A stretch of DNA of 64,000 nt, taken from assembly GCA_012517065.1 (NCBI GenBank), contig JAAYVR010000068.1, forward strand, positions 268-64,267. The letters are read 5' to 3'. Shown here in pieces: positions 25,133-64,000 of this stretch. The notes below the pieces were generated by a model that was not told the DNA's origin, made no database searches, and worked only from the letters and a program-made list of their open reading frames with translations. Source of the DNA: Verrucomicrobiota bacterium (GTDB taxonomy: Bacteria > Verrucomicrobiota > Verrucomicrobiia > Limisphaerales > J093). Each line of letters opens with the position of its first letter. Position 1 is the first letter of the stretch. The position numbers were made by a program, and so were the translations under genes.

Positions 25133-26503
25133 CTACGGTGTTGCAGCCAGCGCGGCGTCGGCTGTGGCCAAGCCCGCTCCAGTAGCGTCCGCCCCCCACG
25201 AAATGGTTGTGGTAGTGCCGTATGGCGTGTAAACCGTGCGGGAGCCAGGGGCCAGGTAGATCGCGCTGCCCTCGAGAATGGCTTCAGCTTGAGCCGCAGT
25301 CAGTGCTGGATTCTTCTGTGCCATCAATGCAACGATACCTGTCACGTGAGGGGCGGCCATGGAAGTGCCGCCGAGGAAGTAATAGCTGATCTTGCCGCTT
25401 TGGAGTTGATAGGGGCCGACAACCCATGACCCCGGCGCTGCAACATCGAGGTCTTGACCCGCCTTCTGCCGACTTGAGAACTCGGTGATGTAGAAGTGAT
25501 CTGGGTTCGTTGGATCAGCCACATTGAGAGCATACCACCACCCTTGGCTTCCTTGGCACCATTCACCCACCCACCCGCAAGCTGCGACTGAGATGACCGG
25601 TGCATAAGCTCCGGGGTAACCCATGCCGGCTGTTCCAGCATTCCCGGCAGATGCAACAATGATCACGCCCTTTGAAATGGCGTAATCAATCGCAACCTCT
25701 TCGACAGCGTCCAAGGCAGGCCCGCCCAAGCTCATGTTAATGACCACCGGGTAGTCCGCCAATGGACCGGCCTTGAGGTCTGCGACGTAGGTTATGCCCT
25801 TGGCAATGACTGATGACCAGCCCGAGCCGTTCTGGTTCAGGACCTTGACTGGAATCACAGTAGCTTTGGGCGCGACGCCGTTAATCGGAGTCCCACGCAA
25901 GCTGTAACCGATGATTGTGCTTGTGACGTGCGTGCCATGAGAGTTTTGGTCGTGCTCCCATTTGTTTGGCTGGGTGGAAACAAAGCCCATGTCACCGCCA
26001 CCGCCACCGAAACATGTTGCATACTCGGTTGCTATGCGTTCCTCCGGAAAATACTGTCGCCATGAATCAAGCAATCCGGTATCAAGTACAGCCACATAAA
26101 CGCCAGTGCCATCATAGGTGACCTGACGATTATTGAAGCCGAAGTCGGTTACGTTAATTGCGTCTAGGTTCCATGTGCTCAGACCGTTGGCAAAGTTTTC
26201 CACCAAAACCGTGTCAATTGGCGCGCCGTAGCGTTCGGCGTCGGGGTTCGCCGCAGCCACGTACGGAAGGTCTTGGATCGAGGGCAGCAAACTTGCTTTC
26301 GCTCTGATTGTGACTGCGTTGAGCTGCGGGATGGCGTCCGTGACACGGCCGTACTTGCTGAGGTCAGCGAGGATTTGGTCGGTAACATCCGTGTTTAAGA
26401 GGACGTTGATGCCGATCATGCGGTTTGGCGGCGCCGCGCTGGTGGGGAGGGCGATCGCGAGTGTTGTTGCGAGCAAAACAATAGTGAGCAGAATGCGTTT
26501 CAT
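25133..26503 (-). CDS. Secreted subtilisin-like serine protease (peptidase S8)
   Basis: Signal peptide MKRILLTIVLLATTLAIALPTSA from the ATG at 26503. Catalytic triad motifs are VAVLDTGL, HGTHVTSTI and GGTSMAAPHVTG. Confidence 0.9.
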   Translation of the reverse strand: MKRILLTIVLLATTLAIALPTSAAPPNRMIGINVLLNTDVTDQILADLSKYGRVTDAIPQLNAVTIRAKASLLPSIQDLPYVAAANPDAERYGAPIDTVLVENFANGLSTWNLDAINVTDFGFNNRQVTYDGTGVYVAVLDTGLLDSWRQYFPEERIATEYATCFGGGGGDMGFVSTQPNKWEHDQNSHGTHVTSTIIGYSLRGTPINGVAPKATVIPVKVLNQNGSGWSSVIAKGITYVADLKAGPLADYPVVINMSLGGPALDAVEEVAIDYAISKGVIIVASAGNAGTAGMGYPGAYAPVISVAACGWVGEWCQGSQGWWYALNVADPTNPDHFYITEFSSRQKAGQDLDVAAPGSWVVGPYQLQSGKISYYFLGGTSMAAPHVTGIVALMAQKNPALTAAQAEAILEGSAIYLAPGSRTVYTPYGTTTTISWGADATGAGLATADAALAATP

Positions 26504-26757
26504 GGTATCGATTTTCTCTCCTTTCTGATTTCGTGTTCGAATTGGTTGTTCACAAGGGCTTTCCAAGCTTCCGCCTGTCGTTGCCGATTGCATCACACTA
26601 ACGGAACGGATGCAATCCGTAATTCAGAGGAATGCCGGGCCGAAAGGCCGAGGCGCATTTGAGATTTGTTCGCAGCGCCGTGGCCAATGGAGGACGGGCT
26701 TTTTCTTGTCGGTTTTACTCCTGATGTTGATCGCCCTTGGAATGATCTTGCTGTTAA

Positions 26758-47700: not shown

Positions 47701-50700
47701 TGACACCTGCAGTCCGATCGTCCCCGACCCGATCAGTGCGCTCACGTCAGAGGCGGCCACGGTGAGGTAGCCGGGTGTTCCGTTGACAAGGGTGATGATG
47801 AACCGTCCGGAAATCGAAATCGATTGAGTGTCGCCGTCGATTGGAACGTTGATTGTAATCGGCGTTGGTCCTGAATCGAGTTTGTTGAACGGACCAGCGG
47901 GGAGGTCGAGGGCGGTTGGGTTGCCAAAGACCTGGTTAACCGCATTTCCCATTGTGTTGAAGGCCCAGTCGAAAGTGTGTGAGAAGCCTGTGCCGAAAGC
48001 GTTCACATGGACGGTTATCGAGCCCTTGCCGGCAATACCGGCGTCGTTGATTGCGAAGAAGCCGTTGCCGTTATCGGCCGTGAGGAGGCTGGTCCCGAAA
48101 TTGAAGCTCACCGAGTTTGCGGTCACGGTTATCATGCGGGAGCCGCTTTGAGAAGTGCGCTGCTCGAAGGTGAAGTTACCGGTCAATGTGGCTCCGAGGA
48201 AACCGAGTGAAACTCCCGTGCCACTGACGCGCAGGTAAGGGCCGGCCGGAAGATCAATGGTGACCGTTGATGCGCCCACGCTGACGGTTTCGCTGACGGC
48301 TGATGTCGAATTGTTGATGCTGACGGCGAATGAGCCTCCGATGGTCACACCGGGCACGTTGAGCGAGACTGTCGCGCCAGCCGTGCCGGCCAGGCTTGTG
48401 GCTGTTATAATGAAAGCTCCACTGCCGCCTGTAACGCTAAGCAGGTTGTTCGCTGTTGCGCCCAGATTCAGCGACAGACCGGACGCTGCCACTGTCACTA
48501 CCCATTCGCCGCCTGTTGTGGTTTGGGTGCGCTCGAACGTGAAGTTCCCTGTAACGCCTATGCCCTGCACAGTGAGGGATGCGCTCGTGGCGCTAACCCT
48601 GAGGAACGGTCCGGCGGGCACGTTCACTGTGACGCTGGTGCCGTTTACGTTTAAGGTCTGGTTGTAAGCGGTGTTCGAGTTGTTAAGCGAAACTGAGAAA
48701 GAACCGCTCAGGCCAAGGCCGGATACTGCCAGAGCGACGGTGGCCGACGCCGAACCAACGATGCCCTGGCTGCGGAAAACAAACGCACCTGTGCCGTTGG
48801 TGACGCTCAGGATCGGATTCGTGCCATCACCAAAACCGAATGACAAGTTAGCGACTCCGACGGCAACTTCCTCGTACCCGTTGCCGGGGTTCGAGTCCGC
48901 ATCGCGCGGCTCGAATGCGAAATCGCCCTCGAGGCTTGCCTGCGGCGTGGTCAGGCCGATAAGCCCATGGCCACGCACGCGGTAATATCGTCCTGCGGGC
49001 AGGTTAACAGTTGTACCGGCGATTTCAGAAACAGCGCTTTCAGAGGTGTTTAAGGCCAAAGTCAACCCTGTCGCGCTCAAAGTGATGTTCGGGATGGCCG
49101 GCCCAAGGGCGAAATCGAGGGTCAAAACACCCGCCAAATCGCCGCCGATCAGCGCGAATGTGCCGAAGCCATTCTGGACGCTCAACACACGGCTTGTGCC
49201 CGCGCCGAGCTGGAAACTGACGTTTTCGGCTTCGAGCACGGTTTGTGTGCCAGTGTTTCTGAACGTGAAAGTCCCGGTGAGCGTTTGTCCCATTATGGTC
49301 AAGGTGCTGGCCACACCAAGGCTCAGCTCTGGGGCGCGCGTGAACAGATCATCAGATTGAACGTACACGACATATGTTCCGCTCAGGGAAAACCCTGCAA
49401 AACTGAGCGAGCCAGTCAACGGAAGGACCGCATCGAGCGTGCCGATCTTGTTCAAGTTGAACGCATTTCCGATGTTGGATGCGCCAAGTCCCGCGAGGGT
49501 TGACTGGGTTATTCGGCCGCCGGTGAGAATGCTCTCGTCCGGCGTTGCCAGGACGGCAGCGTCGAGGTTAATTGAACCGCCGTTCACATTCAGACTCTGA
49601 GTCCCACCGGGTGTGTTGAAACTGAACCCGAAGCCGCTCAAACCCGTCGCATTGATTCGCGCGCGCAATCCAATCGAACGAACGCCAACAAAGAATCCCG
49701 TCCCGCTCTCATAACCAAAGGAAATGTCCAGCACAACGGCGCTGCTCACGTTAACCGTGGGGCTCCCATTGAACATCGCGCCAAACACCCCGCCGAGCAC
49801 GTCTTGCAGGGACCGATTTACTGCCGCCGGCGACAGTTCAAGATTGATGTCCCACCACACTGGTTCTGCCCCAGACGACCCGTAGTGGCCGAGAACACCT
49901 TTCACGTCAGCGGTGAATCCAGCGTAGTTTGTGCCGTCCCAGCCTTCGATCGATGACGTCACCTGTGAGACTCGGGGCAGCGTGGCGAGCAAGGAGGAAA
50001 TCCGGCCCTGGATGGCATTCAGGATTGCGGTTTGGGGATCGATCAAGCTGGCCACGCCAGTGCCGATCATGGGGATCGATTCGGCGAAAGCCTCGAGCCC
50101 CTCGAGTGCGTTACTCACATTCGCCAAGGTTCCCAGTCCGGCGTTGATTGCACCTGTGGCGTCACCGGTTAGAGCAGGAGTCTCGACCACGGTGAGCGTC
50201 AGGCCAGTGGCTGAGTAAGTCGGCTTGAACGACCAGGTCGGATGCCCGGGGATCGACGCGGTGCCGAGCCAGTTGGCGAACTCACCTTCAACGGTCGTCC
50301 ATGTGAAAATGAGGAAACTGTTCCCCAAGCTGGGAACAAATCCCCCGTAAAGTTGAATTTGGACAGTGCCACCGAGCCGTGCGAGCCCTGAAACATTGAT
50401 CTGGTCCCAGCCATTGGGATCGATTCCGGGGCCGGCGGTTCCGCCGATCTCGATGAGTGTGGTGCCCTCCGAGCCCTGGGTAAACTCGGAAACGTTTACT
50501 ATGCCTGGTGAATTGCCGGGCGATACCAAACCCGCGTTGAACAACCCACCTTGCAATGTGACATTGCCCGCCAGGACTTGCCCGACTTCAACAACCAAAC
50601 TTCCCCCATCCGCACTGCCTGTACTGGTCCCTATCAACTGACCTGGTGTTTCAGCAGCCGAATCCGCCGGGGGACCATTAGCCGCGCGCAGAGTTTCTGT

Positions 50701-51379: not shown

Positions 51380-53863
51380 TCACGGGTATATGGCGCGAAA
51401 GAACTTGTTCGAGCCGGTGTTGATCTGAGTGTCGATGTACTCGGCAATACCGAGTTCGTTTGCTTTGACAGACGCAAGGGGCGCCCAAAGCACCGGGGCG
51501 AGGGCATCGGACTGCTGAAGCCGGTACGTGACACCAGAAACGCCTTCGAAGCTGAGCCGGTAGAAGTTGTTATCGGTCCTTGTGACGTGCAGGGTTGGGG
51601 CCGGTACTATGTTTGGGTTGCCGACAACTATGCGTATTGGAGAGATTTCAAGGCCCATAACAGATGTCATTTCTGCGCTGGCATACGTTTGCAGCAAGGC
51701 ACCTTCGGAGCTGAGCCTGAGCACCTGAGCGCCTGCGGGATCGTGGACAGCGACGAAGACCTGTCCATTGCCATCGGTTGCGAGGCATGCCGGCGCGGTT
51801 TGCTCGGGTTGGTAGAATGGTTGGAGCGATCCATTCGCGGCCCGCAGGATGATGCGCGAGCCGTAATTCGCCACATACAGGCCAGAGTCTGAGGTTGTCA
51901 CACCCCACGGCAGGTCCAATCCATCCTCGTCAGTGACTGCTGTCTGGCTGCCGTCAGCAAGGCTTACGACGACAAGTTTGTTGTTGTACATGGAACTGAC
52001 GATCAGGTGGTCGGCATCCAGAAAACCGATACCATGCGGGCCGAACAACAATCCGTCCTGGGTGAGCACAGTCGTCTCGCCCGAATCCGGGACGATTTTC
52101 ACGACGCTGTTTTGGTCGGCGCTTGTAACGAATATGGTACCGTCTGGGGCTGTGACAATCCCCCAAAGTTCGGAGAGCAACGTTGATTGGCTGACCAAGG
52201 TGATGCCGCCGGTAGCAAGGTCAAGGCGCTTCACAGTTCCATTCCATTCGCAAACGTACAAGCTGCCGTTTGTGCAGAAAGAAACGTCCGTCGGACCATC
52301 AAAACTGCCAAGCACAGCTTGATCACCGGATTTCGCATCGATTCTGAAGACCGTGTTTGCGTCGAAGTCAGCGGCAATAATGTCGCCAACTTCAACCGTG
52401 ACAGGGGCAAGGACATTGATTGTGAACGATTGTTTGCTTGTCAATGCGGGGACGAAACTATCTGAGACCGTGACCGTGACTGTATGGCTGGTACCAGCTT
52501 GTTCAGGTCCGGGTGTCCATGAGAATTGGCCGTCGGGTGAAACGCTAGATCCAGGCGGTCCTTGTTCCAGAGCGAATGTCAGTGTCTGCGCAGGCAGGTC
52601 CGGGTCGGAAGCATGCAGAGCAACCGAAACAGTCTGACCCGGACGGAGGACATGGTCACCAACGTAATCAAGCGTCGGGGGTAGATTCACTTCTCGGACG
52701 ACGATATTCACAGTGGCGGTGCCATAGAGAGGGGGAACACCGTTGTCGGTCCCGCGTATGGCTATTTGGTATGTGCCGGGGCCATGGGTTTCGTTTGGAG
52801 TCCATGAGAATCTGCCGTCTTGTGATATGGTTGCGCCGGGAGGCGCGCCCGGCTCGAGCGTAAAAGTTACGACTTGCGGCGGGGAATCCGGGTCAGTCGC
52901 TGTCACGCGGAACGAGACCAATGAGCCCTCGTTCACAGTCTGATCGGGTACAGGGTCGATCTGTGGCTGGGAGTTTGTTGGAGGAGTTCCGACTCGGACA
53001 GCGGACACAACTATTCCGCTGATTTGCTGTCGCGGTCCCGCGTCGAAATTGGCAATGATTACACCTTCCGGGCTGAGGCGAATCAGCATGTCGTTTTGGC
53101 CGGGAGCGCTGGCTGCTGCGCCGATTAGGAGGTTGCCGGTGGGCTCGACTGCGAATCCGTAGGGAAAACCCGGGACGTTGCCCACCTTGATTATTGCGCC
53201 GGTATCAGTGGTGACACTGTTGATTTGTTTTGAGTCGTAGTGGCCGCTGTAAACCTTGTTGCCGAAGACAGCCAAACCCCATGGATGATCAATCCAAACG
53301 CCGCCCTGGGCTATAACAGACTGCTTGCCGGTGGCAGAATCGATTGTGACAATCGCATTGTTCAGGAACGAAGCCACGACGATGGTTTTGTCGTCAAGGA
53401 ACTCGATGCCTGTTGGCAAGGAAAGCTTGTCGCTCTGGGTCAGAATTGTCTCGGTGCCGGTCACGGGATCGATCTGCATGACTACGTCGAGGCTGCCGCT
53501 GCGCCCGGTGGCGTAAAGGCTCCCATTGGGACCAATGGCGAGACCGCGAACCGACGTTAACGCCGAGGCCGGGTTGAGGATGGTGACAGTGCCCTCAGCG
53601 ATAGATAGGCGCTTTATGGCCCCCCCAAGTTCGCCCACGTACAACTCGCCGCCGGTTGACATGGCGATGTCCATTGGCGCGGTGAATGTCCCCAGCGTTT
53701 GCTGTGATCCGGTAATTGGATTGAATTTGGCGACCTTGTTCCCAAGGTAGTTCGCGGTGATGATATCGCCGACCTCAACAAAGTGGCCCGCGGGAAATGC
53801 ATTGTGCGACACGAGTATCCCAAATGTCGCGACTCCAATTAGAATGACTCTTTGCATGCTCAT
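51380..53863 (-). CDS. Secreted protein with two six-bladed beta-propellers (NHL/SGL-like) flanking two cadherin-like (CADG/He_PIG-type) Ig domains, with a C-terminal FYRV-type tail
   Basis: Signal peptide MSMQRVILIGVATFGILVSHNA. The Ig-like repeats read VNEGSLVSFRVTATDPDSPPQVVTFTL...ISQDGRFSWTP and a second copy. Propeller blade repeats surround them. The protein ends GSNKFFRAIYP. Confidence 0.75.
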   Translation of the reverse strand: MSMQRVILIGVATFGILVSHNAFPAGHFVEVGDIITANYLGNKVAKFNPITGSQQTLGTFTAPMDIAMSTGGELYVGELGGAIKRLSIAEGTVTILNPASALTSVRGLAIGPNGSLYATGRSGSLDVVMQIDPVTGTETILTQSDKLSLPTGIEFLDDKTIVVASFLNNAIVTIDSATGKQSVIAQGGVWIDHPWGLAVFGNKVYSGHYDSKQINSVTTDTGAIIKVGNVPGFPYGFAVEPTGNLLIGAAASAPGQNDMLIRLSPEGVIIANFDAGPRQQISGIVVSAVRVGTPPTNSQPQIDPVPDQTVNEGSLVSFRVTATDPDSPPQVVTFTLEPGAPPGATISQDGRFSWTPNETHGPGTYQIAIRGTDNGVPPLYGTATVNIVVREVNLPPTLDYVGDHVLRPGQTVSVALHASDPDLPAQTLTFALEQGPPGSSVSPDGQFSWTPGPEQAGTSHTVTVTVSDSFVPALTSKQSFTINVLAPVTVEVGDIIAADFDANTVFRIDAKSGDQAVLGSFDGPTDVSFCTNGSLYVCEWNGTVKRLDLATGGITLVSQSTLLSELWGIVTAPDGTIFVTSADQNSVVKIVPDSGETTVLTQDGLLFGPHGIGFLDADHLIVSSMYNNKLVVVSLADGSQTAVTDEDGLDLPWGVTTSDSGLYVANYGSRIILRAANGSLQPFYQPEQTAPACLATDGNGQVFVAVHDPAGAQVLRLSSEGALLQTYASAEMTSVMGLEISPIRIVVGNPNIVPAPTLHVTRTDNNFYRLSFEGVSGVTYRLQQSDALAPVLWAPLASVKANELGIAEYIDTQINTGSNKFFRAIYP

Positions 53864-53936: not shown

Positions 53937-56120
53937 TTAACGTTGCACACTGACGCGGTAGAATCGTGTCTCATATCCGGCGTTTGGATCGATGAAAATG
54001 TTTGTTGGCTGGGTGGCAACGATGTTGTTGGTAAGCAAGGTGAAATTATTGCCTGCGATTCCTTGGGAAACCCAAACTGAGTAGGTACGGCCGATCGCGC
54101 TTGGCCATTCCAGTGAGACTGCATTGCCCAGTCCATGGCGTTTGATGCGCAGGCCAAGCACTGATGACGGGTTTGCCGGGTCTGTGCCGGCAATTTCTTC
54201 ATCTCGGTCAAGGACACCGTCGCCGTCGGTGTCGGCTAACGATGGAACTGGCATCTGCCATTCTACGTGCGGATCGCCGAAAAGCGTGATTTCGTAGTAA
54301 CACCAGCGATAAGTCATGATGCCGCCGGACTCGACATGAGCAATCAAGTCCTGCTTCCCGAACTGGTTGGCGACACCAAGGTAATGAGATTGTTGGGTCA
54401 GAAGCTGATAAAAGAACTGGCGCTGGAATTCGCCGCTGTACTTCGACTCGTCCTGTGAATCATACCAGCCGAGCCTGGAATTCAGGATGGCGGCGAAAGC
54501 GCCGCGGTTGTTCCGTTTCAACAACTCCTCGCCGATGCTGTCAGGGGAGTACCGATCGTTATCGAATTGTCCAACATTGCAACCAACGCTGTATGCGAGA
54601 AATGGGTATGCGTTGCCCAACGCATCGAGATCGGCGGTCTCAATTGCGCGAACCGGGTAGTTTTGCAGTCCGATCAATGTGAAATCGTTGCCATGGCCAT
54701 TGAGGAGCACCAAATGAGGCGATTGATTGAGGGCCGTGATGGCGTCGGCCTTCGTCCACGGGGGCTTGGTGAACCGATCATCCAGCCATGTGATTCTGTA
54801 ATCCGCAAACAGCGGAAGCAGCGGATCGAACATGTCGCCGCCCTGGGCGAGTCCAGTGGATGTTTCGGAGAGCACTTCAGCGAGGAACAGCGCTGTGTCA
54901 GGCCACGGATGGCCGTTAATAGCGTAGCGGATGGTCTTTTCGACAAATATCATCACTTCGGCCGGAGTATCCACCGGGGCGCGGCCGACGAATACTTCGG
55001 AAAGCAAGTCCACGTCTCCGCCGTCATCGCCGTCGTCCGGCTCGCCCCAGCGGCTGTCGCCGTCGCCATTCCAAGAGCCGTCCAAACAGGCAAAATAGGT
55101 ATCGGTCGGAACAATTGGCTGTCCTTGGACGAGCGAACCCATCCCAACGTATGCGTAGCGGCATGGGATAGTTGCAACATCGCCTCCCAGCAACACGTAA
55201 GTTATGCCCCAGTTCGTGTAAGCGTACCTGATGTAATTGCGGATTTGCTCAGGGAGATCGCGTCCGGCATACGAAGAGGCAATTGACTCGACCGTCTGTA
55301 CTTTGACATTGAGACCGCTTGCGGCCTTTGCCGTGACGAGAGGAGAAAACGCCTGGACAAGGTTGCTGCGGGTGATCAACAGATAGTCGAAGACCGGCGT
55401 AATCGCCTGCAGTTTTGCGACCGGTCTCTGCTCGTATTCAGCCAAGAGCGCCGGGTTGTCTATCATGTGTTCTATGCTCTGGCGGGCACGGTGTTTGGCT
55501 CTGGCTGGAACTGATGCGGTTTGAACCGGGCTCTTTGTGACATCGAGAACTACCGTCAGGCACTTGGCAAACACAAGCTCGCCCGTAGCCGGCTTGTACT
55601 GAATGGGATAAACCCGGACAAACGCAACATCGTAATCTGCCATGCGCTGGACCGACGCCAGCTCGGCGCGCACGGCTGGGTAAGGATTCTCGGAAGCGTA
55701 GATGGCCGGATCTGGCCCGTCGTCGATATTGCTCTGTTGCGCAGCGTGGCTGTCGCGCGTGGGGTTAACCGGAGGCCTTGCATGGCCGATTCGCCAAGAC
55801 CCTGGCAATACGCTGGCTGATTCACGCATTCGAGCGAAGACGGCTTCAACTCTTGTTCCCGGCGGAATCAGTAGCCTGATCGTGCGGAACGGCAGAATTG
55901 GCGCACCGGTCCGAAGCAATTGCTGGCAGCCAGCGACGCTGACTTGATCGGACTCTTCCGATGCAATAACCACTGGGTCGGCGAAATCGCAGTCCGCCAA
56001 AATCTGGCGAGCACCGGCGATGTTGGCCGCGCTGACACCGGCTAGCAATGTCATGCACGCCACAACCACCGTAATACGGCGCAGAATTGCGAGCGAGTTG
56101 TGCTGTCCGGGTCTGATCAT
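53937..56120 (-). CDS. Secreted peptidase C25 (gingipain-like cysteine protease) with a TSP3-like Ca-binding linker and C-terminal FYRV-type tail
   Basis: YLLITRSNL...YVLLGGDVATIP (C25 N-terminal region), catalytic-type LLNGHGNDF and YSVGCNVGQFD, then DTDGDGVLDRDEEIAGTDP. The protein ends ETRFYRVSVQR. Confidence 0.8.
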   Translation of the reverse strand: MIRPGQHNSLAILRRITVVVACMTLLAGVSAANIAGARQILADCDFADPVVIASEESDQVSVAGCQQLLRTGAPILPFRTIRLLIPPGTRVEAVFARMRESASVLPGSWRIGHARPPVNPTRDSHAAQQSNIDDGPDPAIYASENPYPAVRAELASVQRMADYDVAFVRVYPIQYKPATGELVFAKCLTVVLDVTKSPVQTASVPARAKHRARQSIEHMIDNPALLAEYEQRPVAKLQAITPVFDYLLITRSNLVQAFSPLVTAKAASGLNVKVQTVESIASSYAGRDLPEQIRNYIRYAYTNWGITYVLLGGDVATIPCRYAYVGMGSLVQGQPIVPTDTYFACLDGSWNGDGDSRWGEPDDGDDGGDVDLLSEVFVGRAPVDTPAEVMIFVEKTIRYAINGHPWPDTALFLAEVLSETSTGLAQGGDMFDPLLPLFADYRITWLDDRFTKPPWTKADAITALNQSPHLVLLNGHGNDFTLIGLQNYPVRAIETADLDALGNAYPFLAYSVGCNVGQFDNDRYSPDSIGEELLKRNNRGAFAAILNSRLGWYDSQDESKYSGEFQRQFFYQLLTQQSHYLGVANQFGKQDLIAHVESGGIMTYRWCYYEITLFGDPHVEWQMPVPSLADTDGDGVLDRDEEIAGTDPANPSSVLGLRIKRHGLGNAVSLEWPSAIGRTYSVWVSQGIAGNNFTLLTNNIVATQPTNIFIDPNAGYETRFYRVSVQR

Positions 56121-56147: not shown

Positions 56148-56723
56148 CTATTCCACCGTTAGATTCTCGATTCTGCAGTCGCCTATGACGACGGTGACCT
56201 TGCTGCCGTGCTTGATGAGGCCTCGTGAATTCCCGAAGAACACGAAATAGGTCCGCCCTTCGAGCAATTGAACCGCTGTTTGCCGCAAAGATCCGAGTTT
56301 GGGTGTCGTGGGCACGCGAAGCGTGCTTCCGGTGGCTTGGTCAATCAGATATGGTTTCCATTCTGCCTTGGCCAGAGGCGCGGCTTTCTGTGGGTCCAGC
56401 ACTTTGTAACGAAAATCGACGAAGTAACCTTGCCCAGAGAGTCTTACGCTTGCTATCGCGACACCCCATTTATCGCGCAGCTCCTCGGGCGCTGTAGTTG
56501 AAGACACGGCGGGCTGAGTTACAGCCGCGTCGGAAGTGCAGCAACTCTTCTCTATACTGCACTGTGGAGCGTTGTTTGCGCAGCACGGCGATGAGCCAGC
56601 ATCGTTGGCTTTCAACGGATTCGAGCCCATTACAGCGCATAGGATAAATGCGGCGAAAAAGGCTGGGCGTTCGTGATTAATATTCATGAGGATGGCTTTC
56701 ATTTTGCAACTGCGATTGACCAT
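56148..56723 (-). CDS. Small secreted Cys-rich hypothetical protein (possible metal-handling partner of the oxidase genes)
   Basis: 191-aa ORF with alternative ATGs at 56702 and 56687. It has a hydrophobic signal segment FFAAFILCAVMG and the Cys cluster SSPCCANNAPQCSIEKSCCTSD, followed by a beta-rich ~110-aa domain. The stop lies 27 nt before the C25 start. Confidence 0.6.
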   Translation of the reverse strand: MVNRSCKMKAILMNINHERPAFFAAFILCAVMGSNPLKANDAGSSPCCANNAPQCSIEKSCCTSDAAVTQPAVSSTTAPEELRDKWGVAIASVRLSGQGYFVDFRYKVLDPQKAAPLAKAEWKPYLIDQATGSTLRVPTTPKLGSLRQTAVQLLEGRTYFVFFGNSRGLIKHGSKVTVVIGDCRIENLTVE

Positions 56724-56792: not shown

Positions 56793-57725
56793 TCATTGCC
56801 TGGACAGCGACCGTCTGTCATACACAGTCAATGGCGAGGAGCTGGCCGTTTCAAGCAACGCGTCGCGGGTCTTTAAAGCCGGAAGATTCACCGCGTTTTC
56901 AAGCTTTGGATAGCTATACTTGCGGCCGTCTTCGGCAACGATCTTGAGGTGTGTGCCGTTGACGACGGGTATTCGCTCGTCGTAACACGCATTGAGCATC
57001 CTAATCAAAGTTGCTCCCTGAGGACCACCCGAGACAGACGTGGTGATAAACGGCTCGCCATTCAAGAGATAGACGTCTGGTGTCGAATGGATCATGCTCT
57101 TTACAGTGGTGCCGTAGGTGCCATCGCGCACGGCATCATGAACATCGAAATCGATTTCACCAAAAACCCACACCTTTTCCCTGGTGAAAAAGTAGGGCAC
57201 TCCCTCGTACGCCTGGCTCAGAGGACGGGTGTTCGTGAAATTCTTTCTGAGGAGACCGTACAAGCCCATTTGTACTTGAAGTGCCGGATGGGACCCGCTG
57301 TGGTAAAGGTATGTGCCGGCGCTAACGTTCTTCCAGACGTATTGGACTGTTTGACCAGGCTGTGTCTCCTTGACGAACGACCGAGCCCGAGTTCGTCCAA
57401 ATGCGTCTTCAAAAGTGGTGTGCGATGCGTCACGAACGAATCCGTTCTGGCCCGGGATTACCAACGATACTGGCACATTCAGCTCGTTCTTCAGATTGAT
57501 GATCAGTTGGGTGTCTGCGACCGACACTGTAAGCGCGGGGCCGGGCGAGGTGGGCGCGCCATTTCCTATTGCGAATCCCCACATCAATACTTGGCGTCCA
57601 TTGACGGTTTTCGTGTAACTCGCGGCACGCATATTGAAGGTTGCCGCCGAAGCCCGAGGGGCAATGAGCAGGCAGAAGATACTCAGCATGGCGGGTGCAA
57701 GTGACTTGATAAGTAATCGGTTCAT
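56793..57725 (-). CDS. Two-cupredoxin multicopper-oxidase-like protein C, with all copper ligands lost
   Basis: Signal peptide ...LLIAPRASA. It is paralogous to protein B and to the C-terminal region of protein A (PGPALTV..., GTYLYHSGSHPALQVQMGLYGLL), but has VSLVIPGQNG in place of HxHxHG and no HCH or HSH motifs. Confidence 0.7.
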   Translation of the reverse strand: MNRLLIKSLAPAMLSIFCLLIAPRASAATFNMRAASYTKTVNGRQVLMWGFAIGNGAPTSPGPALTVSVADTQLIINLKNELNVPVSLVIPGQNGFVRDASHTTFEDAFGRTRARSFVKETQPGQTVQYVWKNVSAGTYLYHSGSHPALQVQMGLYGLLRKNFTNTRPLSQAYEGVPYFFTREKVWVFGEIDFDVHDAVRDGTYGTTVKSMIHSTPDVYLLNGEPFITTSVSGGPQGATLIRMLNACYDERIPVVNGTHLKIVAEDGRKYSYPKLENAVNLPALKTRDALLETASSSPLTVYDRRSLSRQ

Positions 57726-57779
57726 GTGTTCTCCTGTTTTTCGTTTTCGAGTAATGTTGGTCAGAATAGCAACTGGCCG

Positions 57780-59078
57780 TTAATGAGTAGGGTGAGCGGC
57801 AATGAGAAGGAATGTCATCATGCCGCCTCCAAAGATGTTGTTGTTACAGAGCTCTTTCTCGGCGTGTGAGTGCCACATGTACATGAAGCCCCCGACCGGG
57901 TTGAATCCGCCTTCGCCTGGCGGCAAGGTTCCCAGAGAACCAAGGAACGGACTGCCAGAATACATTTGGCCAAAAGTCAGGTCTTGATCTGGCGGGAGCT
58001 TGACGGGGAAAGGTTTCCCGTGGTCTTCGGCGTATTCATGAGGAGCCAACGGATCCTCTGGGCTGTGGCCATAGACATCCCAGCCGAGCTTTTCCCCCGT
58101 CCATGAGAAGAGAGCATCGTAGGTGCTGCCCGGGCTTGATGGAATTGTAAATACATGGTAGGCAAGGTCTGCGCCCACCGTGCCGCCGGTTTGTCCAGCG
58201 GTTGAAAGGTATCTGCCGTCGCGCGCAATGACTTTTGCGTGGTTTCCGTGGTGATGGAATGGGTGTGAATCACGTCCAGCACCTACCACTCGCATGAGCG
58301 TGACATCGCCGGCGTGGATCATGGTGAGAGCGTCATAGGGCTGGTGCGGCAGCCACGGCGCGTTGGCTGGCAGAACAGTGTCCGGGCCAGTACGCCCGTT
58401 GATGAACCAATATACTGGCCACCGCTTTGTCATATCGACCTGTATTGGTTTGCCTGTTTTTACTTGTTCTTCGACCTGGTCATGGATGTTTTCGTCCATC
58501 TCGCTCAACACGTAGAGGAACTCGTGTTCATAGGTGCTGTCGCTATGAGCATACGCTTTGCGATTGGTGACCGGGTGGTAACCGGTCGGGCGCACGATGA
58601 GCGCGCCCACCAAGCCCATCTCAGTTTGGAGGTCCGGCTGTGAGCCGCTCTCGTAAATGTAGGTTCCGGGCTGAGTTGCAACAAAAGTGTACTGTACACT
58701 CCCGCCAGGTGCAGCCTGGCGTGCAATGGTCCCCTGAATTCCGCCCTGGCTTCTAATTCCCTGCTGTCCAGGGAATATCATCGACACCGGCACTGGCAGC
58801 TCGTTGTTCAATGTGACTTTCACGAGCTGGCCCTGGATAACAATCATGGTCGGACCGGGGTATTGAGCCAGGCCGCTTGCATTTGCGAATCCCCAAAAAT
58901 ACACGCTATTGCCTTCGGCGGTGCTAAGGTATCCAGATTTCGCCGTGAACGTGAAATTCGGGCCGGTGACGCCGTCCACATCGTGCACGGCATGCGCGCT
59001 TCTTGCATTGCTGCAGGCTGCTACAAACCCCAGTATGCATGCCATCAGCAGGGTTGTGTTCTTGGTCGAGCGTTTCAT
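57780..59078 (-). CDS. Two-cupredoxin multicopper-oxidase-like protein B (probable lipoprotein). Domain 1 is degenerate. Domain 2 carries HPFHHHG and WHSH
   Basis: ATG at 59078 gives MKRSTKNTTLLMACILGFVAAC (lipobox-like VAAC). An upstream ATG at 59129 would overlap the stop of gene A (ATGA). HPFHHHGNH is encoded at ~58239-58265 and MWHSHAEKELC has its WHSH at 57864-57875. Confidence 0.8.
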   Translation of the reverse strand: MKRSTKNTTLLMACILGFVAACSNARSAHAVHDVDGVTGPNFTFTAKSGYLSTAEGNSVYFWGFANASGLAQYPGPTMIVIQGQLVKVTLNNELPVPVSMIFPGQQGIRSQGGIQGTIARQAAPGGSVQYTFVATQPGTYIYESGSQPDLQTEMGLVGALIVRPTGYHPVTNRKAYAHSDSTYEHEFLYVLSEMDENIHDQVEEQVKTGKPIQVDMTKRWPVYWFINGRTGPDTVLPANAPWLPHQPYDALTMIHAGDVTLMRVVGAGRDSHPFHHHGNHAKVIARDGRYLSTAGQTGGTVGADLAYHVFTIPSSPGSTYDALFSWTGEKLGWDVYGHSPEDPLAPHEYAEDHGKPFPVKLPPDQDLTFGQMYSGSPFLGSLGTLPPGEGGFNPVGGFMYMWHSHAEKELCNNNIFGGGMMTFLLIAAHPTH

Positions 59079-59125
59079 TTTCACAATGTCCTTTCGCGGT
59101 GAGTTGCTGTGGTGAATTGGTGTTG

Positions 59126-62100
59126 TCATTGGACGATGATCTCGGTCATCATGCCGCCGAAGTCTTCCTCATCATTGCAGAGATGGTTTAGTCTGGCGTC
59201 GTATAAGAAGTATGTGCCAGGTGCCACACCCGCCGTGTCCAGTATTACGTCGGCAGTTTCACCAGCACCGATCGTGATTGAGGTTGTCTCGTAAGAAAGA
59301 TCCAGACCAGTTGGACCGCGCAGCAATTTGGCGTCCTTGCCGATTACCCGCATTGGGATACCGAGCACTGTAACGGTATGGAAATCGGACAGCGACACGT
59401 TCGATAGCCGCAGCAGGATTCGTTGTCCTGCCGTCGCCACAACGCGCGAGTCGATCTTTTGAGATGGGTATGGGTCTTCAAGTCCGAGAACCTCTTGGAC
59501 CTTGGAATTGACGACCGGCGCGGAGGCAACTGTGTCCGGGTAGCCGCGCCCGTTGATTAGCGGGTAGCTCTCGTCAAGTTCAGAGAACGGCAGTGGCTGA
59601 ACAAGGATGTGCTGTTCGTGGAAGTTGCGGTCGAAAGCCGACAACTGCAATTCCTTTTCGACATCGTAGTAGGTTGAGCCATCGCCGTCGTTGTAAGCGT
59701 ACTTGTAGCCTGGCTGGTGTTTTGGGCCTTTACCAGGTGGTAGCTTTGCGAATGTCGGGTAGTCAGCCGGGTCAAGGGGGCCATTGGGACCAATGTGAGC
59801 GTAATTCTGCCTTGGTGTAATGTACAGGGAACCCAGCATGCCCATTTCCATGTGCTCGGTGGCCTCTACGTGGCAGTGGTAAATGTAGGTGCCGGGATCG
59901 ACAATGTTGTAGAAGTATCTGAACGTAGCGCCCACATTGATCACTGCAGACGCGAAAGGCTCGCCATCGAATATCGAGGCCGCCTGCGGGTAACCGTGAA
60001 AGTGCACTGAGTGCGGATCGAACAGATCAGGCCTCATGAGCATCCCAACGTTGGACAGGTCAAGATAGAATTTCTGACCTTCTTTGAGCTTGATGGTAGG
60101 GGCCGGAATCTCTGCCTTGAGCATCCCATCTCGCATGACATGGGTTGGATCAACTTCTGTAAGGTTTGCAAAGCCGAACTGGTAAAGCTCGTTACCGTCA
60201 GCCATTTTCGAGAAACCGTCGCCGCCGGTGACGCGCATGTAATAGTGGTCGTTGTTCGCGTCGCCGTCGCCATCAGTGTCCAGTCCGTCTTGATCTGCTG
60301 GCATCGGCTCAAACACTGGTTGGACAGGATCACCAGGCGGAACGCCTGCGCCGTTGGGCGGAGTGGTAACAGGTGGCGCGACGCCGCTTGGCAATGGTCC
60401 TGTCGCTGGGGCTGTTGTCCCGACATCCACTGAAACAGCGGTGGAGTTGGCCTCGTCGGCGCCGATGTCTGCGGCACTGCCCGAGGGGCGCGCCTGCAGG
60501 TCAATGTCAAAGGCAACTGGAGATGAAGTGGACGCAGCATCGCTTGCTGCTGAACCGCTGTTGATGTGGTAATCACCGTAGTTCGCCTGAACAGGGGGAG
60601 TTGCAGTGACTGACTGTTCGAGACGAACCGAGATATTATTGCCCGCCTCATCTATGACGACTGCCGAATGAAGTGTGTTGTAATACGGCGCAAGGAAGTT
60701 TGGCGTGCCGTAAATGTTGCCGCTGCCACCCGCGTAAGCTGCTGTGAGCACGCAATTGACGGGGTTAAGGGTGGCGGAAGGCTGCTCTACGACGCCGAGG
60801 TCCCATGTTATTGGGTTCTCGAGGGTTTGGACACCGGTGTTGCCGTTGAATTGATACGACCTGTTTTCGTATATGATATTGTTCTCGAGCACCGGGTTGG
60901 CGAACGTCTCTGGAGCGAGGAAAGAAGCCAGGAGAATACCATGCTGGTGGGCCGCTATTCCTGCGACCTGGCGGTCGGATACACTCGAGCCAGGGGCAAA
61001 CACAGAGCGCGAGGTGGCTGTGCTGTCATTTCGTGCGATGGTGTTATGAATTATGCGAGCACGGGCGATATCTTGAAGTGATATGCCCCCGCCAGCCCAG
61101 CCAGCGACATTGTTGACAATGACGTTGTTGATAATGTCGAGCGCGTACCAGTTTTCTTTGGCGGATTGCACGTCTGTGCCGTTGAATGAAGCGACGCGTA
61201 TGCCGCCGCCGTGCCCTGATCCAGCAAGATTGCCCTGGATTAAATTGTTGATGATGGTGAGCGACCCGGCGCCTTGTCCAAGCCCAGCCGGCACAGGCTC
61301 GCCTGCGACATAGATGCCACCGCCATCGCCGCCCACAAGTATCCCGTAGAACACTTCGTTGAAAGCTATGCGGTTGCCAGCAATAAGCCCGTTGGGGCTG
61401 AGCCCTTCATGTGCGATGCCGCCGCCATTCTGACGGCAGAAATTGCCGATGATATCGTTGTTAATGATTCTGTAGCCTGTGGCGCCTGTGTAGATAGCTA
61501 TGCCGCCGGCGCCTGTCACACCGCCGTTCTTGAGAATCTGGTTCCTTTCGATCGTCACGTTGGTGTTGTCATAGAGAATCCCTGCGTTGCCTTGCATGCC
61601 GATTGACACGCCGCCACCGTAAGTTCCCTGATTGCCAATGATGCGGTTGTTACTGATGCGGAGGTCGTGCACGTTGTTGAACAAGCTAATGCCGCCGCCG
61701 GCAATCGAGCCTTTGATCTGGAAACCGTCAATGCGCGCTCCCGCGCTCTTGAACGCGTCCGGGGCCGTGCTGAAGACAATGATGCCCGGCAGTTCATTAG
61801 CGACGAACGGGTCACCCCCAAGCCTGGCTTCTATCAACTCATGCCATGTTGTCACTCTGTCCAGTGGATTCGGGTTGGCGAGTATCACCGTGCCTGCACC
61901 TGAACCCTGTAACCGCACCGGTTTCCACAAGATTGGGTTTTCGTTGTAGTTCCCCTCGCCAACGAGAATGAGATCGCCGGGTGCTGCCGCGTCGATAGCA
62001 TCCTGGATTGGATTCGGTATCGGGTCTGCTTCGGATGGCGATTGAGGGGTAACATAGTGAACATTGCCCGGCCCCCCGAGAGTCAGTGTGACGCCGATTG

Positions 62101-64000
62101 GCGAATGTTTGCCATTGTCGCGAGTGACTTCGAGCTGCCATGCATTACCCGAGGGCAGGGTTGACGGGAGGCGGGCTTTGATTTCGTTGTTTGTCCATGA
62201 AACGACCTCGAGAGCCACGCCGTTGATGGTCACGCTTCCATTTCCCTGGGTGTCGCCAAAGCCGTAATCCCGGGTGATCGTCGCCGAGTTCTGGTATCCC
62301 AGCGAAGTTGGGTCTGGAACTTGAGTATTCCCCAGCGAGGTTATGGTAATTACGTCGGTTGGACTGGCAAGGTAAGGGCCGACGCCGGTGCCTGAGACTG
62401 ATTTGATCACGGGCGTGCTGTCCGGTGGTTCGACATCCAGTTGGTTGTTGGGAAATCCAACCAACCCCGCTATCGGTACGATGGGAGTATCAAGGTAGGA
62501 AACACTGCCGGGGTAGTACATGAACGTCCATGGTGTTGTCGAGAAGTTTGGATTGTAGAACGGGTCGGGTATGCGCGGGCCGTTTGGGTTTGCAGGGTCG
62601 GGCATTGTGGGATCGTTCAGCACCAGCGTGAGCATGTTCGGTGAAACGCCGCTTGGTGAGGGCACATTGGCGGTGTAGGTCGATGGCAACATCGCATTGT
62701 AGGTGCCGTATTCGTCCGAATACACACGCACGATTTCGTTGCCGGCCCAGTCACGGAACGAAATGGGCAGCCAGCCGGGCGAGCCCTTTTCGCCAAAGAT
62801 CGGACTGAACGCGTTGAATTCGGCTGTGAAATCGTTCAGAACGAAACCCATGACACGGGCAGCTTTGGGAACCTCTGTGTACATATGAAAGTCGGCAGCC
62901 GCATTTTGACCGTCAGATACACGCACCCATTTCATGTCAGCCAGTGGCCTGACCTGTCCTGCGAAGGGCGCCGGTTCACCCGCGTCGGGGAACAGACTCA
63001 AGGTTGGTGCGACAGTGTAAGGATCGGTTCTGATACTTGGGACGAATGTCTTGACGAAATCGTCCGCAGAAGCGCCACCGTGATTTGGCCGAGTGCCAAC
63101 AAGTTCCGGGGGTAAAACCAGTTTGCTCGGCTTGTAGGATTCGCCGAATCCAACGTTCATGCTTTCTTCGGTCTGGATCAGGTACGTTGGCGGCGGGACC
63201 GCGTGGACGACATAGAAACCTGCAGGCAGCGGGATGTCATCGTCGGGGTTGTTATTCCAGCCCGTTGGATCGTAGCCGTTGAATGCGTAGCCGCCGTCAA
63301 AGACGCCTGGGCGGACCTGATTCCATGTGCCGTAATTGTCGGCACCGACTATTGGTTTGCCGAGGACAGATGCGGGATTGGTTTGGATGGCGCCCAATGT
63401 ACCGCCGGTTCCATCAACAAAATCATCCCAGCTATCGGTCCAGACAATGTTGATTGCGTCGCCGGCGTCGAATACGCCGTTGTTGTTGTGGTCGTAGTCT
63501 TCAGGGCCCTTCGCACCGCCTGAAGCCCAGCCCAGCGGGTAATTGTCAACGTCAGCCAATTGAATCCCAGGGACGCCGTTGATGTCATCAATGAGCTTGT
63601 CACCGTCGCTGTCGCGGTAAAGCGCAACCTGCACTCTTGGAATTCCGGGTTCCCACGGATCAATGACAGCGTCGCGCGGGTTTTGTTCTGCTCTGGTGGT
63701 TTGGTAACCAACGACACCGGAAATTCCACCATTCTCGCCAGGACCGTAGCTGACTTTGCCCCAGTCAATGCGATTGTTTTGGTTCAGAAACAAGTGCATC
63801 GCCTGAAGGAGGACAGGGCCGGTCTCAGTGCGAGAGAGGTTGTCACCTGTATTTGGGTTAATAATTGGTTCATCTGTGAGCGCAATGCCCGTCAGTGGAT
63901 CAACAGCATATTGTGGCTGCGGATTGCGGACTCCTTCTGCCGGCCAGTCAGGTCCAGGAATGAACCCTCCCTCATCGGTGACTGCGGTCAAGCCCGTGGC
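59126..64000 (-). CDS. Large (>1620 aa, 5' end outside the window) secreted protein A: SdrD-B-like and IPT/TIG-like domains, a right-handed beta-helix (PbH1 repeats) and a C-terminal two-cupredoxin multicopper oxidase module with a type-1 copper site
   Basis: The frame stays open to position 64000, and the track's 'M' at 63991 is a TTG. Beta-helix repeats read NNRIIGNQGTYGGGVSIG, ILKNGGVTGAGGIAIY, NLIQGNLAGSGHGGGIRV. Copper motifs are PHSVHFHGY (~59990-60016) and YIYHCHVEATEHMEMGM (59837-59878). Confidence 0.8.
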   Translation of the reverse strand, partial: ATGLTAVTDEGGFIPGPDWPAEGVRNPQPQYAVDPLTGIALTDEPIINPNTGDNLSRTETGPVLLQAMHLFLNQNNRIDWGKVSYGPGENGGISGVVGYQTTRAEQNPRDAVIDPWEPGIPRVQVALYRDSDGDKLIDDINGVPGIQLADVDNYPLGWASGGAKGPEDYDHNNNGVFDAGDAINIVWTDSWDDFVDGTGGTLGAIQTNPASVLGKPIVGADNYGTWNQVRPGVFDGGYAFNGYDPTGWNNNPDDDIPLPAGFYVVHAVPPPTYLIQTEESMNVGFGESYKPSKLVLPPELVGTRPNHGGASADDFVKTFVPSIRTDPYTVAPTLSLFPDAGEPAPFAGQVRPLADMKWVRVSDGQNAAADFHMYTEVPKAARVMGFVLNDFTAEFNAFSPIFGEKGSPGWLPISFRDWAGNEIVRVYSDEYGTYNAMLPSTYTANVPSPSGVSPNMLTLVLNDPTMPDPANPNGPRIPDPFYNPNFSTTPWTFMYYPGSVSYLDTPIVPIAGLVGFPNNQLDVEPPDSTPVIKSVSGTGVGPYLASPTDVITITSLGNTQVPDPTSLGYQNSATITRDYGFGDTQGNGSVTINGVALEVVSWTNNEIKARLPSTLPSGNAWQLEVTRDNGKHSPIGVTLTLGGPGNVHYVTPQSPSEADPIPNPIQDAIDAAAPGDLILVGEGNYNENPILWKPVRLQGSGAGTVILANPNPLDRVTTWHELIEARLGGDPFVANELPGIIVFSTAPDAFKSAGARIDGFQIKGSIAGGGISLFNNVHDLRISNNRIIGNQGTYGGGVSIGMQGNAGILYDNTNVTIERNQILKNGGVTGAGGIAIYTGATGYRIINNDIIGNFCRQNGGGIAHEGLSPNGLIAGNRIAFNEVFYGILVGGDGGGIYVAGEPVPAGLGQGAGSLTIINNLIQGNLAGSGHGGGIRVASFNGTDVQSAKENWYALDIINNVIVNNVAGWAGGGISLQDIARARIIHNTIARNDSTATSRSVFAPGSSVSDRQVAGIAAHQHGILLASFLAPETFANPVLENNIIYENRSYQFNGNTGVQTLENPITWDLGVVEQPSATLNPVNCVLTAAYAGGSGNIYGTPNFLAPYYNTLHSAVVIDEAGNNISVRLEQSVTATPPVQANYGDYHINSGSAASDAASTSSPVAFDIDLQARPSGSAADIGADEANSTAVSVDVGTTAPATGPLPSGVAPPVTTPPNGAGVPPGDPVQPVFEPMPADQDGLDTDGDGDANNDHYYMRVTGGDGFSKMADGNELYQFGFANLTEVDPTHVMRDGMLKAEIPAPTIKLKEGQKFYLDLSNVGMLMRPDLFDPHSVHFHGYPQAASIFDGEPFASAVINVGATFRYFYNIVDPGTYIYHCHVEATEHMEMGMLGSLYITPRQNYAHIGPNGPLDPADYPTFAKLPPGKGPKHQPGYKYAYNDGDGSTYYDVEKELQLSAFDRNFHEQHILVQPLPFSELDESYPLINGRGYPDTVASAPVVNSKVQEVLGLEDPYPSQKIDSRVVATAGQRILLRLSNVSLSDFHTVTVLGIPMRVIGKDAKLLRGPTGLDLSYETTSITIGAGETADVILDTAGVAPGTYFLYDARLNHLCNDEEDFGGMMTEIIVQ

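Follow-up and report, generated by a model that had tools for sequence, protein, structure and literature searches.

Can a multicopper oxidase (MCO) be shared out among the products of several genes, so that no single protein holds a complete active site? The question is raised by three adjacent genes, here termed A, B, and C, which lie near the end of a 64,000-nucleotide stretch of DNA from a Verrucomicrobiota bacterium (assembly GCA_012517065.1, contig JAAYVR010000068.1, positions 268 to 64,267 of the forward strand), referred to below as the window. The trinuclear cluster (TNC) of an MCO needs eight histidine residues, and in the two-domain MCOs (2dMCOs) these are supplied by domain 1 (d1) and domain 2 (d2) of adjacent chains. 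Four of the corresponding residues are found here in d1 of A, the other four in d2 of B, and none in C, and among the 77–81 orthologues per protein that were counted, from 80 fetched B-anchored loci of more than ten phyla, the full set of eight was never found in one polypeptide. A, B, and C probably assemble into a single secreted MCO, a hetero-oligomer that arose from a type-C 2dMCO and for which a ring of six cupredoxin domains would be the simplest architecture; this interpretation is supported by its agreement with every comparative test available.

Three Paralogous Two-Cupredoxin Proteins

The genes in question are part of a larger cassette, encoded on the minus strand with tight or overlapping spacing, and comprise the following features:

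59126..>64000, minus strand: gene A, a large N-terminal module followed by a C-terminal two-cupredoxin unit (listed open reading frame [ORF], 1621 aa).
60434..64000, minus strand: Ant, the N-terminal module of A, probably a β-helix/TIG surface module.
60254..60433, minus strand: Pro/Gly/Asp-rich linker with a DTDGDGD motif, from Ant to A-d1 (called from sequence).
59813..60226, minus strand: domain 1 of A (A-d1), with the sole complete predicted type-1 copper site and four TNC histidines.
59993..60016, minus strand: PHSVHFHG in A-d1, a type-1 His followed by HxH, which provides two TNC His.
59837..59878, minus strand: HCHVEATEHMEMGM in A-d1, reading HCH-x5-H-x4-M, in which two TNC His flank the type-1 Cys and are followed by a type-1 His and the axial Met.
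59129..59608, minus strand: domain 2 of A (A-d2), a cupredoxin free of copper ligands, with a Pfam Cu-oxidase match.
57780..59129, minus strand: gene B, a two-cupredoxin protein with Pfam Cu-oxidase domains, the listed ATG of which overlaps the stop codon of A (ATGA).
58584..58967, minus strand: domain 1 of B (B-d1), a degenerate cupredoxin (VSMIFPGQ, YESGS).
57795..58424, minus strand: domain 2 of B (B-d2), with four TNC His and no type-1 Cys.
58245..58265, minus strand: HPFHHHG in B-d2, conserved as H-P-x-H-x-H-G.
57864..57875, minus strand: WHSH in B-d2, an HxH in which Ser occupies the type-1 Cys position.
57885..58109, minus strand: conserved insertion of ~75 aa in B-d2 (B residues ~341–415), containing DHGKP.
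56793..57725, minus strand: gene C, with a signal peptide and two cupredoxin domains free of copper ligands (Pfam Cu-oxidase_3).

An original prediction, made from the DNA letters and their ORFs, had proposed that the C-terminal part of A and the whole of B and C are paralogous two-cupredoxin proteins. This is borne out by a MAFFT alignment, in which ~430 C-terminal residues of A align with B and C as two-domain paralogues (33% identity to A for B and 24% for C), and by Pfam Cu-oxidase domains in all three proteins. In A, the Pfam matches (Cu-oxidase_3, Cu-oxidase_2, and Cu-oxidase) fall at residues 1288–1599, i.e., within the last ~330 residues of the listed ORF. The reading frame of A is still open at base 64000, where the window ends, and A is therefore longer than the listed 1621 aa; orthologues in which the N-terminal module is fused measure 2100–2400 aa. 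Against the laccase, CopA, ascorbate oxidase, and NirK models curated by NCBI, A, B, and C all fall far short of the cut-offs, and for the NirK model TIGR02376 the scores are 35, 45, and 22 bits against a cut-off of 296. Two relatives of A (P0246 and P0352) carry additional PF22778 and PAP2 (PF01569) domains, and one of them is labelled as a membrane-associated phospholipid phosphatase.

Some details of the gene calls needed revision. The three genes are adjacent and closely spaced, as first described, with an overlap if the ATG at 59129 is used; translation of B more likely starts at M18, at 59078, which precedes a signal peptide. Nor is B generally a lipoprotein, as its lipobox-like sequence had suggested, because the Cys in question is conserved in only 4% of orthologues.

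A Ligand Set Divided Between A and B

The assignment of copper ligands depends on whether the motifs of A and B occupy the ligand columns of known enzymes. Against the solved type-C 2dMCO 3G5W, PHSVHFHG of A-d1 aligns with HTIHWHG and HCHVEATEH with HCHVNVNEH, and a profile of B orthologues aligned with domain 2 of the same enzyme places HP.H.HG on HAIHTHG and WHSH on IHDH. The motifs thus lie both at the positions originally given for them and in the ligand columns to which they had been assigned, and A-d1 and B-d2, each holding half, together provide a complete predicted set of type-C two-domain oxidase ligands. Two features of the initial description do not hold in full: the five-residue spacing of the d1 loop, held to be unusual, is also present in 3G5W, where HCH-x5-H is the type-C loop, and the HPFHHHG motif, correctly located, is better written H-P-x-H-x-H-G, as its middle His (H293) is conserved in only 42% of orthologues.

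The division is very strongly conserved. In A-d1, H196, H199, and H201 are present in 79 of 81 orthologues, and the HCH motif and H249 in 80 of 81, the misses in each case being gaps in truncated ORFs. B-d2 retains H289, H292, H294, H420, and H422 in every orthologue (81/81) and H370 in 80 of 81. The other four domains present the opposite picture: no His occupies the TNC-equivalent columns of A-d2 (0/81), the three HxxHxH columns of B-d1 (0/81), or any TNC column of C-d1 and C-d2 (0/77). The complementary split put forward at the outset is therefore upheld, with 98–100% conservation on the two partner domains and no His elsewhere, and since the residues are conserved at functional sites and absent from the equivalent columns of the other domains, the pattern is not attributable to chance. 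The type-1 site (His, Cys, His, and Met) is likewise confined to domain 1 of A, where it is 98–99% conserved, and is lacking from B-d1 and C-d1, in which every orthologue (100%; 81/81 for B-d1) has Ser at the type-1 Cys position. Of the three proteins, C shows the lowest conservation.

Residues E190, E193, M197, and M199 of A-d1 are invariant in a 17-row paired alignment, and the Glu-x-x-Glu formed by the first two adjoins the type-1 His, a position at which it could mark a site for a metal substrate. In the window, this segment reads EATE (59855–59866, minus strand), inside the HCH...H loop, and resembles the EXXE iron-binding motif discussed for OmpB of Geobacter. The insertion in B-d2 is nearly invariant across phyla (W343, G345, W350, D351, Y353, H355, E365, and H370-G-K-P), is modelled with high confidence and little regular secondary structure, and is shorter in actinobacterial-type fusions of B and C.

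Distribution, Gene Order, and Gene Fusions

Relatives of B number in the thousands, at 50–76% identity and in many phyla, and a pattern scan with one genome per species found B encoded in at least 583 species-level genomes. The hosts of the orthologues include Verrucomicrobiota, Planctomycetota, Lentisphaerota, Nitrospirota, Acidobacteriota, Myxococcota, Desulfobacterota, and Gallionellaceae, among others. When all stop-to-stop ORFs of the fetched loci were searched with the proteins of the window, a fixed order of genes emerged, (Ant)-A-B-C-D, where D is a small gene downstream of C. A lies directly upstream of B in all 76 B-anchored loci with enough flanking sequence, and C directly downstream of B in 75 of 75, three apparent exceptions being artefacts of ORF boundaries. 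D follows C in 63 of 66 loci and is also present in L081, L082, and L083. Two look-ups anchored on A recovered the same cassette. The original prediction had named A proteins without B, and B or C orthologues with a full ligand set, as findings that would speak against it; A without B was encountered neither in these loci (A–B 76/76, B–C 75/75 where the flank allows) nor in the two A-anchored look-ups, and no full ligand set was found in B or C, nor any TNC His in A-d2, among the 77–81 orthologues. The extent first proposed for the system (56793–60016) misses two conserved partners, Ant and D.

Ant accompanies A in 62 loci, fused to it in 19, as in the window, and encoded separately upstream in 43; it forms a separate gene of ~1700 aa in most Proteobacteria and Nitrospirota. 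Its domain matches are weak (NosD-type β-helix, choice-of-anchor Q, and TIG), with no Pfam match at E ≤ 1e-3. In one locus, on a Vicinamibacterales contig (L082), Ant is fused to the C-terminus of C. An exhaustive search with concatenated proteins further identified two fusions of B with C, P0441 and P0427, each consisting of a B unit with HPFHPHG and WHSH, a long linker, and a ligand-free C-type unit. P0441 belongs to a divergent cassette that comprises an A protein (HTVHWHG, HCHFEDSEH), the B–C fusion, a homologue of D, and a CopC-CopD fusion. By the Rosetta-stone argument, the fusions that link these parts in different combinations (Ant–A, B–C, and C–Ant) point to Ant, A, B, and C as members of one assembly. 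No more than two units are fused in any of these proteins (P0441, P0427), and a ceruloplasmin-type polypeptide with all six domains was not found; the system is encoded by three genes.

Where A is encoded without Ant, its gene begins at the linker region, with a Sec (general secretory pathway) signal peptide followed by VQCPGDTNGDA...C.HL.AGDGF. The export of A by the Sec route implies that folding, copper loading, and assembly take place outside the cytoplasm. Export through the twin-arginine (Tat) pathway was considered and rejected for most stand-alone A proteins, as an RRxFL-like motif is present in only 2 of 42 stand-alone A genes. The mature N-terminus of stand-alone A (L007–L051 and others) has a TSP3-like Asp-rich motif and two Cys conserved at 60–70%, which are replaced by Met and Tyr in the fused A of the window. 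C often carries long immunoglobulin (Ig)/cadherin-like or β-helix extensions, typical of surface proteins.

Structural Modelling and Covariation

An AlphaFold model of mature B, built from a 138-row alignment, is of high confidence (predicted local distance difference test [pLDDT], 95.4; predicted template modelling score [pTM], 0.93). Over both domains, it is matched best in the PDB by 2ZWN and 3G5W (E ~1e-19, target-normalised TM 0.73–0.75, root mean square deviation 3.6–4.8 Å, identity 17–18%), followed by Nmar_1354, 3GDC, and copper nitrite reductases. These neighbours are all trimers in which the catalytic metal sits where domain 1 of a chain meets domain 2 of its neighbour, and the modelled B is accordingly shaped as one third of a six-domain ring. 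The two-domain protomer was assigned by superposition of the model for B and by sequence alignment for A and C. Among solved structures, no close relative was found, the best PDB E-values by sequence being ~1e-15.

A ring made of B alone could not hold a trinuclear cluster, because B-d1 is free of ligands, and the same applies to A, whose second domain lacks them; the predicted distribution of ligands thus argues against functional homotrimers. Covariation between the proteins was assessed as mutual information with average-product correction, over inter-protein pairs in 77 genome-paired sequences. The hypothesised interfaces contain 19 of the top 50 pairs and those of the opposite ring order 6, with ~12.5 expected for each. 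The A-d1/B-d2 combination accounts for 12 of the 50 (4.7 expected) and C-d1/B-d2 for 2 (6.5 expected), and several of the top pairs adjoin the ligand motifs; in one of these, the residue that separates the His pair of HFH in A is coupled to residue 427 of B. This weakly suggests that A-d1/B-d2 is preferred over the alternative ring order.

A Proposed Assembly and Its Alternatives

The assembly that these observations suggest would have come about by triplication of a 2dMCO gene followed by subfunctionalisation, leaving exactly one competent d1/d2 pair. In such a complex, A-d1 would contribute the type-1 copper, the Cys-His electron path, and four TNC His, and B-d2 the remaining four. The simplest stoichiometry would be 1:1:1 in the cyclic order A-C-B, in which B-d2 packs against A-d1 at a single catalytic interface, no copper is present where A-d2 meets C-d1 or C-d2 meets B-d1, and C closes the ring without binding copper itself. 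The complex would then hold four copper atoms and a single TNC, in the manner of ceruloplasmin. The subunits would be exported unfolded through Sec, with metallation and assembly following outside the cytoplasm, which fits the copper-handling genes (SCO1/SenC; CopC-CopD) of related cassettes, and the ring would be tied to protein D and to the large β-helix module, which forms part of A here, stands alone in most lineages, and is joined to C elsewhere. Electrons would pass from the substrate to the type-1 copper of A-d1 and on to the composite TNC, where O2 would be reduced to water.

Several points weigh against this proposal. The place of C in the ring is argued from co-occurrence, gene fusions, and the absence of ligands, and C also shows the lowest conservation among the subunits. 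Many of the hosts are anaerobes, which is awkward for an enzyme that reduces O2, and neither an SCO1 nor a cytochrome gene was found near the cassette in this window. The invariant H289 (the first His of its motif), H370, and H216 of B-d2 have roles that the proposal leaves unexplained. A concatenated AlphaFold model of 1194 aa, arranged in the order A-C-B so as to be colinear with ceruloplasmin and built from a 9-row alignment, reached a pLDDT of only 43.6 and a pTM of 0.29; it was discarded as uninformative either way. The covariation sample consists of 77 related sequences with phylogeny uncorrected, and non-adjacent d2–d2 pairs are enriched in it as well.

An alternative that retains the composite site of A and B dispenses with the A·B·C ring, in favour of a dimer of A with B, an oligomer of higher order, or a ring in which another copy of A or B takes the third place, and treats C as a separate surface protein or adhesin. 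The low conservation of C and its long Ig/cadherin-like or β-helix extensions speak for such an arrangement, but C keeps a complete two-cupredoxin unit in all 75 loci, always right after B, and proteins in which B and C are fused exist. Moreover, the known two-domain cupredoxin oxidases and reductases all close a ring of three protomers, and if another A or B completed the ring, one half-site would be left without a partner, so that we regard this alternative as unlikely. Less probable still is that there is no TNC, A being an electron carrier with a type-1 site alone, its His vestigial or put to a different use, and B and C being non-catalytic structural or binding cupredoxins. No polypeptide has the full MCO ligand set, scores against the curated MCO and NirK models stay far under the cut-offs, and many hosts are anaerobic, all of which this explanation accommodates; it does not readily account for ligands that are 98–100% invariant on both partners over more than ten phyla and absent from the four other domains, for the correspondence of the retained residues to exactly the eight TNC positions of 3G5W, or for the copper-chaperone genes in related cassettes.

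The proteins might also form separate homotrimers that owe their activity to an unconventional mono- or binuclear site, such as a NirK-like type-2 site in homotrimers of A. NirK-type reductases are indeed among the structural and sequence neighbours, and they too have the type-1 site in domain 1, but the pattern of A-d1 is that of an MCO (HxxHxH, HCH) rather than of NirK, A-d2 has no His to offer to an interface site, and the complementary four His of B, the obligate linkage of A, B, and C, and the gene fusions would all be left unexplained. This possibility is therefore considered very remote, and a hetero-oligomer of A, B, and C is preferred.

Comparison With Known Copper Oxidases

In sequence as in structure, A and B have their nearest neighbours among the type-C 2dMCOs, represented by the blue copper oxidase of Nitrosomonas europaea (3G5W) and the metagenomic mgLAC (2ZWN). 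In common with the cassette, these enzymes have a type-1 copper in d1, an HCH-x5-H loop, and HxxHxHG and HxH motifs in domain 2, and their TNC lies at the d1/d2 interface between chains. They are homotrimers of one gene product that bears all eight TNC His and forms three sites, whereas in the cassette each product has at most four, the two halves lie on different paralogues, the third paralogue has none, and the identity is ~17–18%. The original prediction knew of no described MCO with its eight TNC His split between two different polypeptides; this can be put more precisely, as two chains share the eight His in all homotrimeric 2dMCOs, and what sets the cassette apart is that the two chains are different gene products, each with half of the ligands, so that the enzyme could probably work only as a mixed complex.

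At the level of the cupredoxin fold, the proposed ring of six cupredoxins, in which only one of three pseudo-equivalent interfaces carries a TNC and the other two are degenerate, resembles ceruloplasmin and hephaestin. Ceruloplasmin is one polypeptide that arose by internal triplication, with type-1 sites in its even-numbered domains, whereas the cassette encodes three products, sometimes fused in pairs, with one type-1 site in a first domain. The Mnx complex of Bacillus (MnxG with MnxE/MnxF) offers a precedent for a multi-subunit MCO that acts on a metal substrate outside the cell, though MnxG alone has the complete type-1/TNC set, its accessory subunits are small and not cupredoxins, and its cluster is unsplit. 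Nmar_1354 of Nitrosopumilus maritimus (9CCK), a structural neighbour of B, is a 2dMCO trimer described as an α-α-α′ "heterotrimer", but there the heterogeneity lies in the presence or proteolytic absence of a pendant domain on the same product, and all chains have full ligand sets. In the literature on heterotrimeric or split-site MCOs, this proteolytic "heterotrimer" and the small subunits of fungal laccases were the only examples found, with nothing equivalent to the cassette, the composite nature of which appears to be undescribed.

A further likeness is to OmpB of Geobacter and MofA of Leptothrix, large secreted proteins with MCO domains that are encoded near a MofC-like cytochrome and SCO1, as are the proteobacterial cassettes. 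OmpB and MofA are single polypeptides with the full set of motifs. A is large as well but has half of the TNC ligands, the three tandem MCOs of the Sideroxydans cluster discussed next were treated as a different family from OmpB/MofA (He et al., 2017), and the MofC-like and SCO1 genes are found in a Gallionella locus rather than in the window.

A cluster of this kind has been described in Sideroxydans lithotrophicus ES-1. Slit_1812–1818 includes three tandem cupredoxin/MCO genes, whose products are predicted to be extracellular and are classed as not homologous to OmpB/MofA (He et al., 2017; PMC5566968), together with genes for small hypothetical proteins, SCO1/SenC, and a cytochrome (PMC5566968; bioRxiv 10.1101/2024.09.20.614158). 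According to a more recent report, the products of Slit_1816–1818 are higher in magnetite than in Fe(II)-citrate cultures; two of them have canonical MCO motifs, and the third, which is large, lacks these and has adhesin and polysaccharide-lyase-like domains (Keffer et al.; bioRxiv 10.1101/2024.09.20.614158). A paper of July 2026 still cites the cluster in the same terms. These descriptions match the Gallionellaceae loci L025 and L013 and the C–Ant architecture of L082, and the ES-1 cluster, judged from its published description and from the related Gallionellaceae loci rather than from ES-1 sequences, is probably the same cassette. Neither a shared site nor a heteromer is proposed for the ES-1 proteins in the available text of the two reports (PMC5566968; bioRxiv 10.1101/2024.09.20.614158), and the expression evidence consists of the comparison of magnetite and Fe(II)-citrate proteomes of ES-1.

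The leading guess for the substrate is an extracellular metal or mineral, e.g., Fe(II) or Mn(II). The Glu-x-x-Glu of A-d1, the predicted extracellular location of the ES-1 proteins, the magnetite proteomics, and a host range that includes iron oxidisers and metal reducers all point to such a substrate or to a cytochrome partner. In its most far-reaching form, offered tentatively and as a possibility that may well prove wrong, the system would be an obligate heterotrimeric, single-site MCO on a β-helix/adhesin scaffold, oxidising metals, whether solid or dissolved (Fe(II)/Mn(II) minerals), or an electron-carrier cytochrome, and coupling this to the reduction of O2 at the cell surface.

Accessory and Neighbouring Genes

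Downstream of C and elsewhere in the window, the following features were noted:

56148..56723, minus strand: gene D, a small exported or anchored protein of 191 aa with a conserved C-terminal domain of ~110 aa.
53937..56120, minus strand: Peptidase_C25 (gingipain/PorU-like) with a TSP3 repeat (Pfam E = 1e-57), directly after D.
51380..53863, minus strand: protein of 827 aa with Ig-like and NHL/β-propeller domains, which co-occurs with the cassette in 9 related loci; its membership is uncertain.
32704..51210, minus strand: giant ORF of 6168 aa, probably for a surface adhesin, whose repeats are of the Calx-beta, RTX nonapeptide, and SdrD_B types.
28064..32614, minus strand: protein of 1516 aa with five GEVED domains and with IgGFc-binding and HYR domains, adjoining the giant adhesin gene.
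25133..26596, minus strand: S8 subtilase, relatives of which stand directly after D in 23 proteobacterial-type loci.
20686..22938, plus strand: protein of 750 aa, a fusion of PAP2 phosphatase and PMT_2 glycosyltransferase domains.

D has no match in Pfam or NCBIfam. Its domain of ~110 aa has the consensus WG..R.S..G..DFRY.V.D..KA...VP..K.G.LR and is preceded by a signal or anchor segment. A role as a copper chaperone was rejected, as D lacks conserved Cys, His, and Met. In several loci of the Planctomycetes-Verrucomicrobia-Chlamydiae (PVC) type (L002, L005, L014, L021, L024, L027, and L029), a second, more divergent paralogue of D lies a few kb downstream.

Homologues of the C25 peptidase are encoded downstream in 11 loci and appear as a lineage-specific accessory of the Verrucomicrobiota type, their position being taken by an S8 subtilase in the proteobacterial loci L025 and L083. 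The presence of these two types of secreted-protease gene suggests that the complex is processed by proteolysis or attached to the surface. In the Gallionella locus L025, the cassette is followed by a subtilase with Ig domains, SCO1/SenC, and a cytochrome c that is MofC-like and joined to a periplasmic-binding domain, as well as by an ORF that is GspG-like in its N-terminal sequence; CopC-CopD is present in L081. More distant genes of the window were rejected as members of the cassette because they do not co-occur with it, with the exception of the C25 peptidase, the 827-aa protein, and relatives of the S8 subtilase.

A cluster of ORFs lies upstream of the cassette in 37 loci (L079 and 36 others) and, judged by an example sequence, resembles LuxR/NarL-type response regulators, and Pfam-annotated two-component genes are found upstream in L082; these regulator-like genes hint at signal-dependent expression of the cassette. 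GC skew is strongly positive (0.13–0.23) between 28 and 46 kb of the window.

Biological Implications

Database entries of this kind number in the thousands and are labelled "multicopper oxidase domain-containing protein" or even "manganese oxidase", and studies that express or knock out single genes among them would mislead, because none of the proteins would be expected to act alone. A conserved cassette of five parts (the β-helix module, A, B, C, and D) is now flagged in at least 583 species-level genomes. For geomicrobiology, it provides a testable model for the three copper proteins of Sideroxydans that are higher on magnetite than on Fe(II)-citrate.

If the proteins form a true heteromer, they would represent a living intermediate between 2dMCO homotrimers and enzymes that, like ceruloplasmin, carry six domains on one chain; duplication and complementary loss of ligands would have made the subunits mutually dependent and reduced the copper cost from twelve atoms to four. 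If, in addition, the complex acts at the cell surface on metals or an electron-carrier cytochrome, it would constitute a copper-based counterpart of the cytochrome-based modules for extracellular electron transfer, common to iron oxidisers, metal reducers, relatives of nitrifiers, and PVC bacteria, and would be both very widespread and previously unrecognised.

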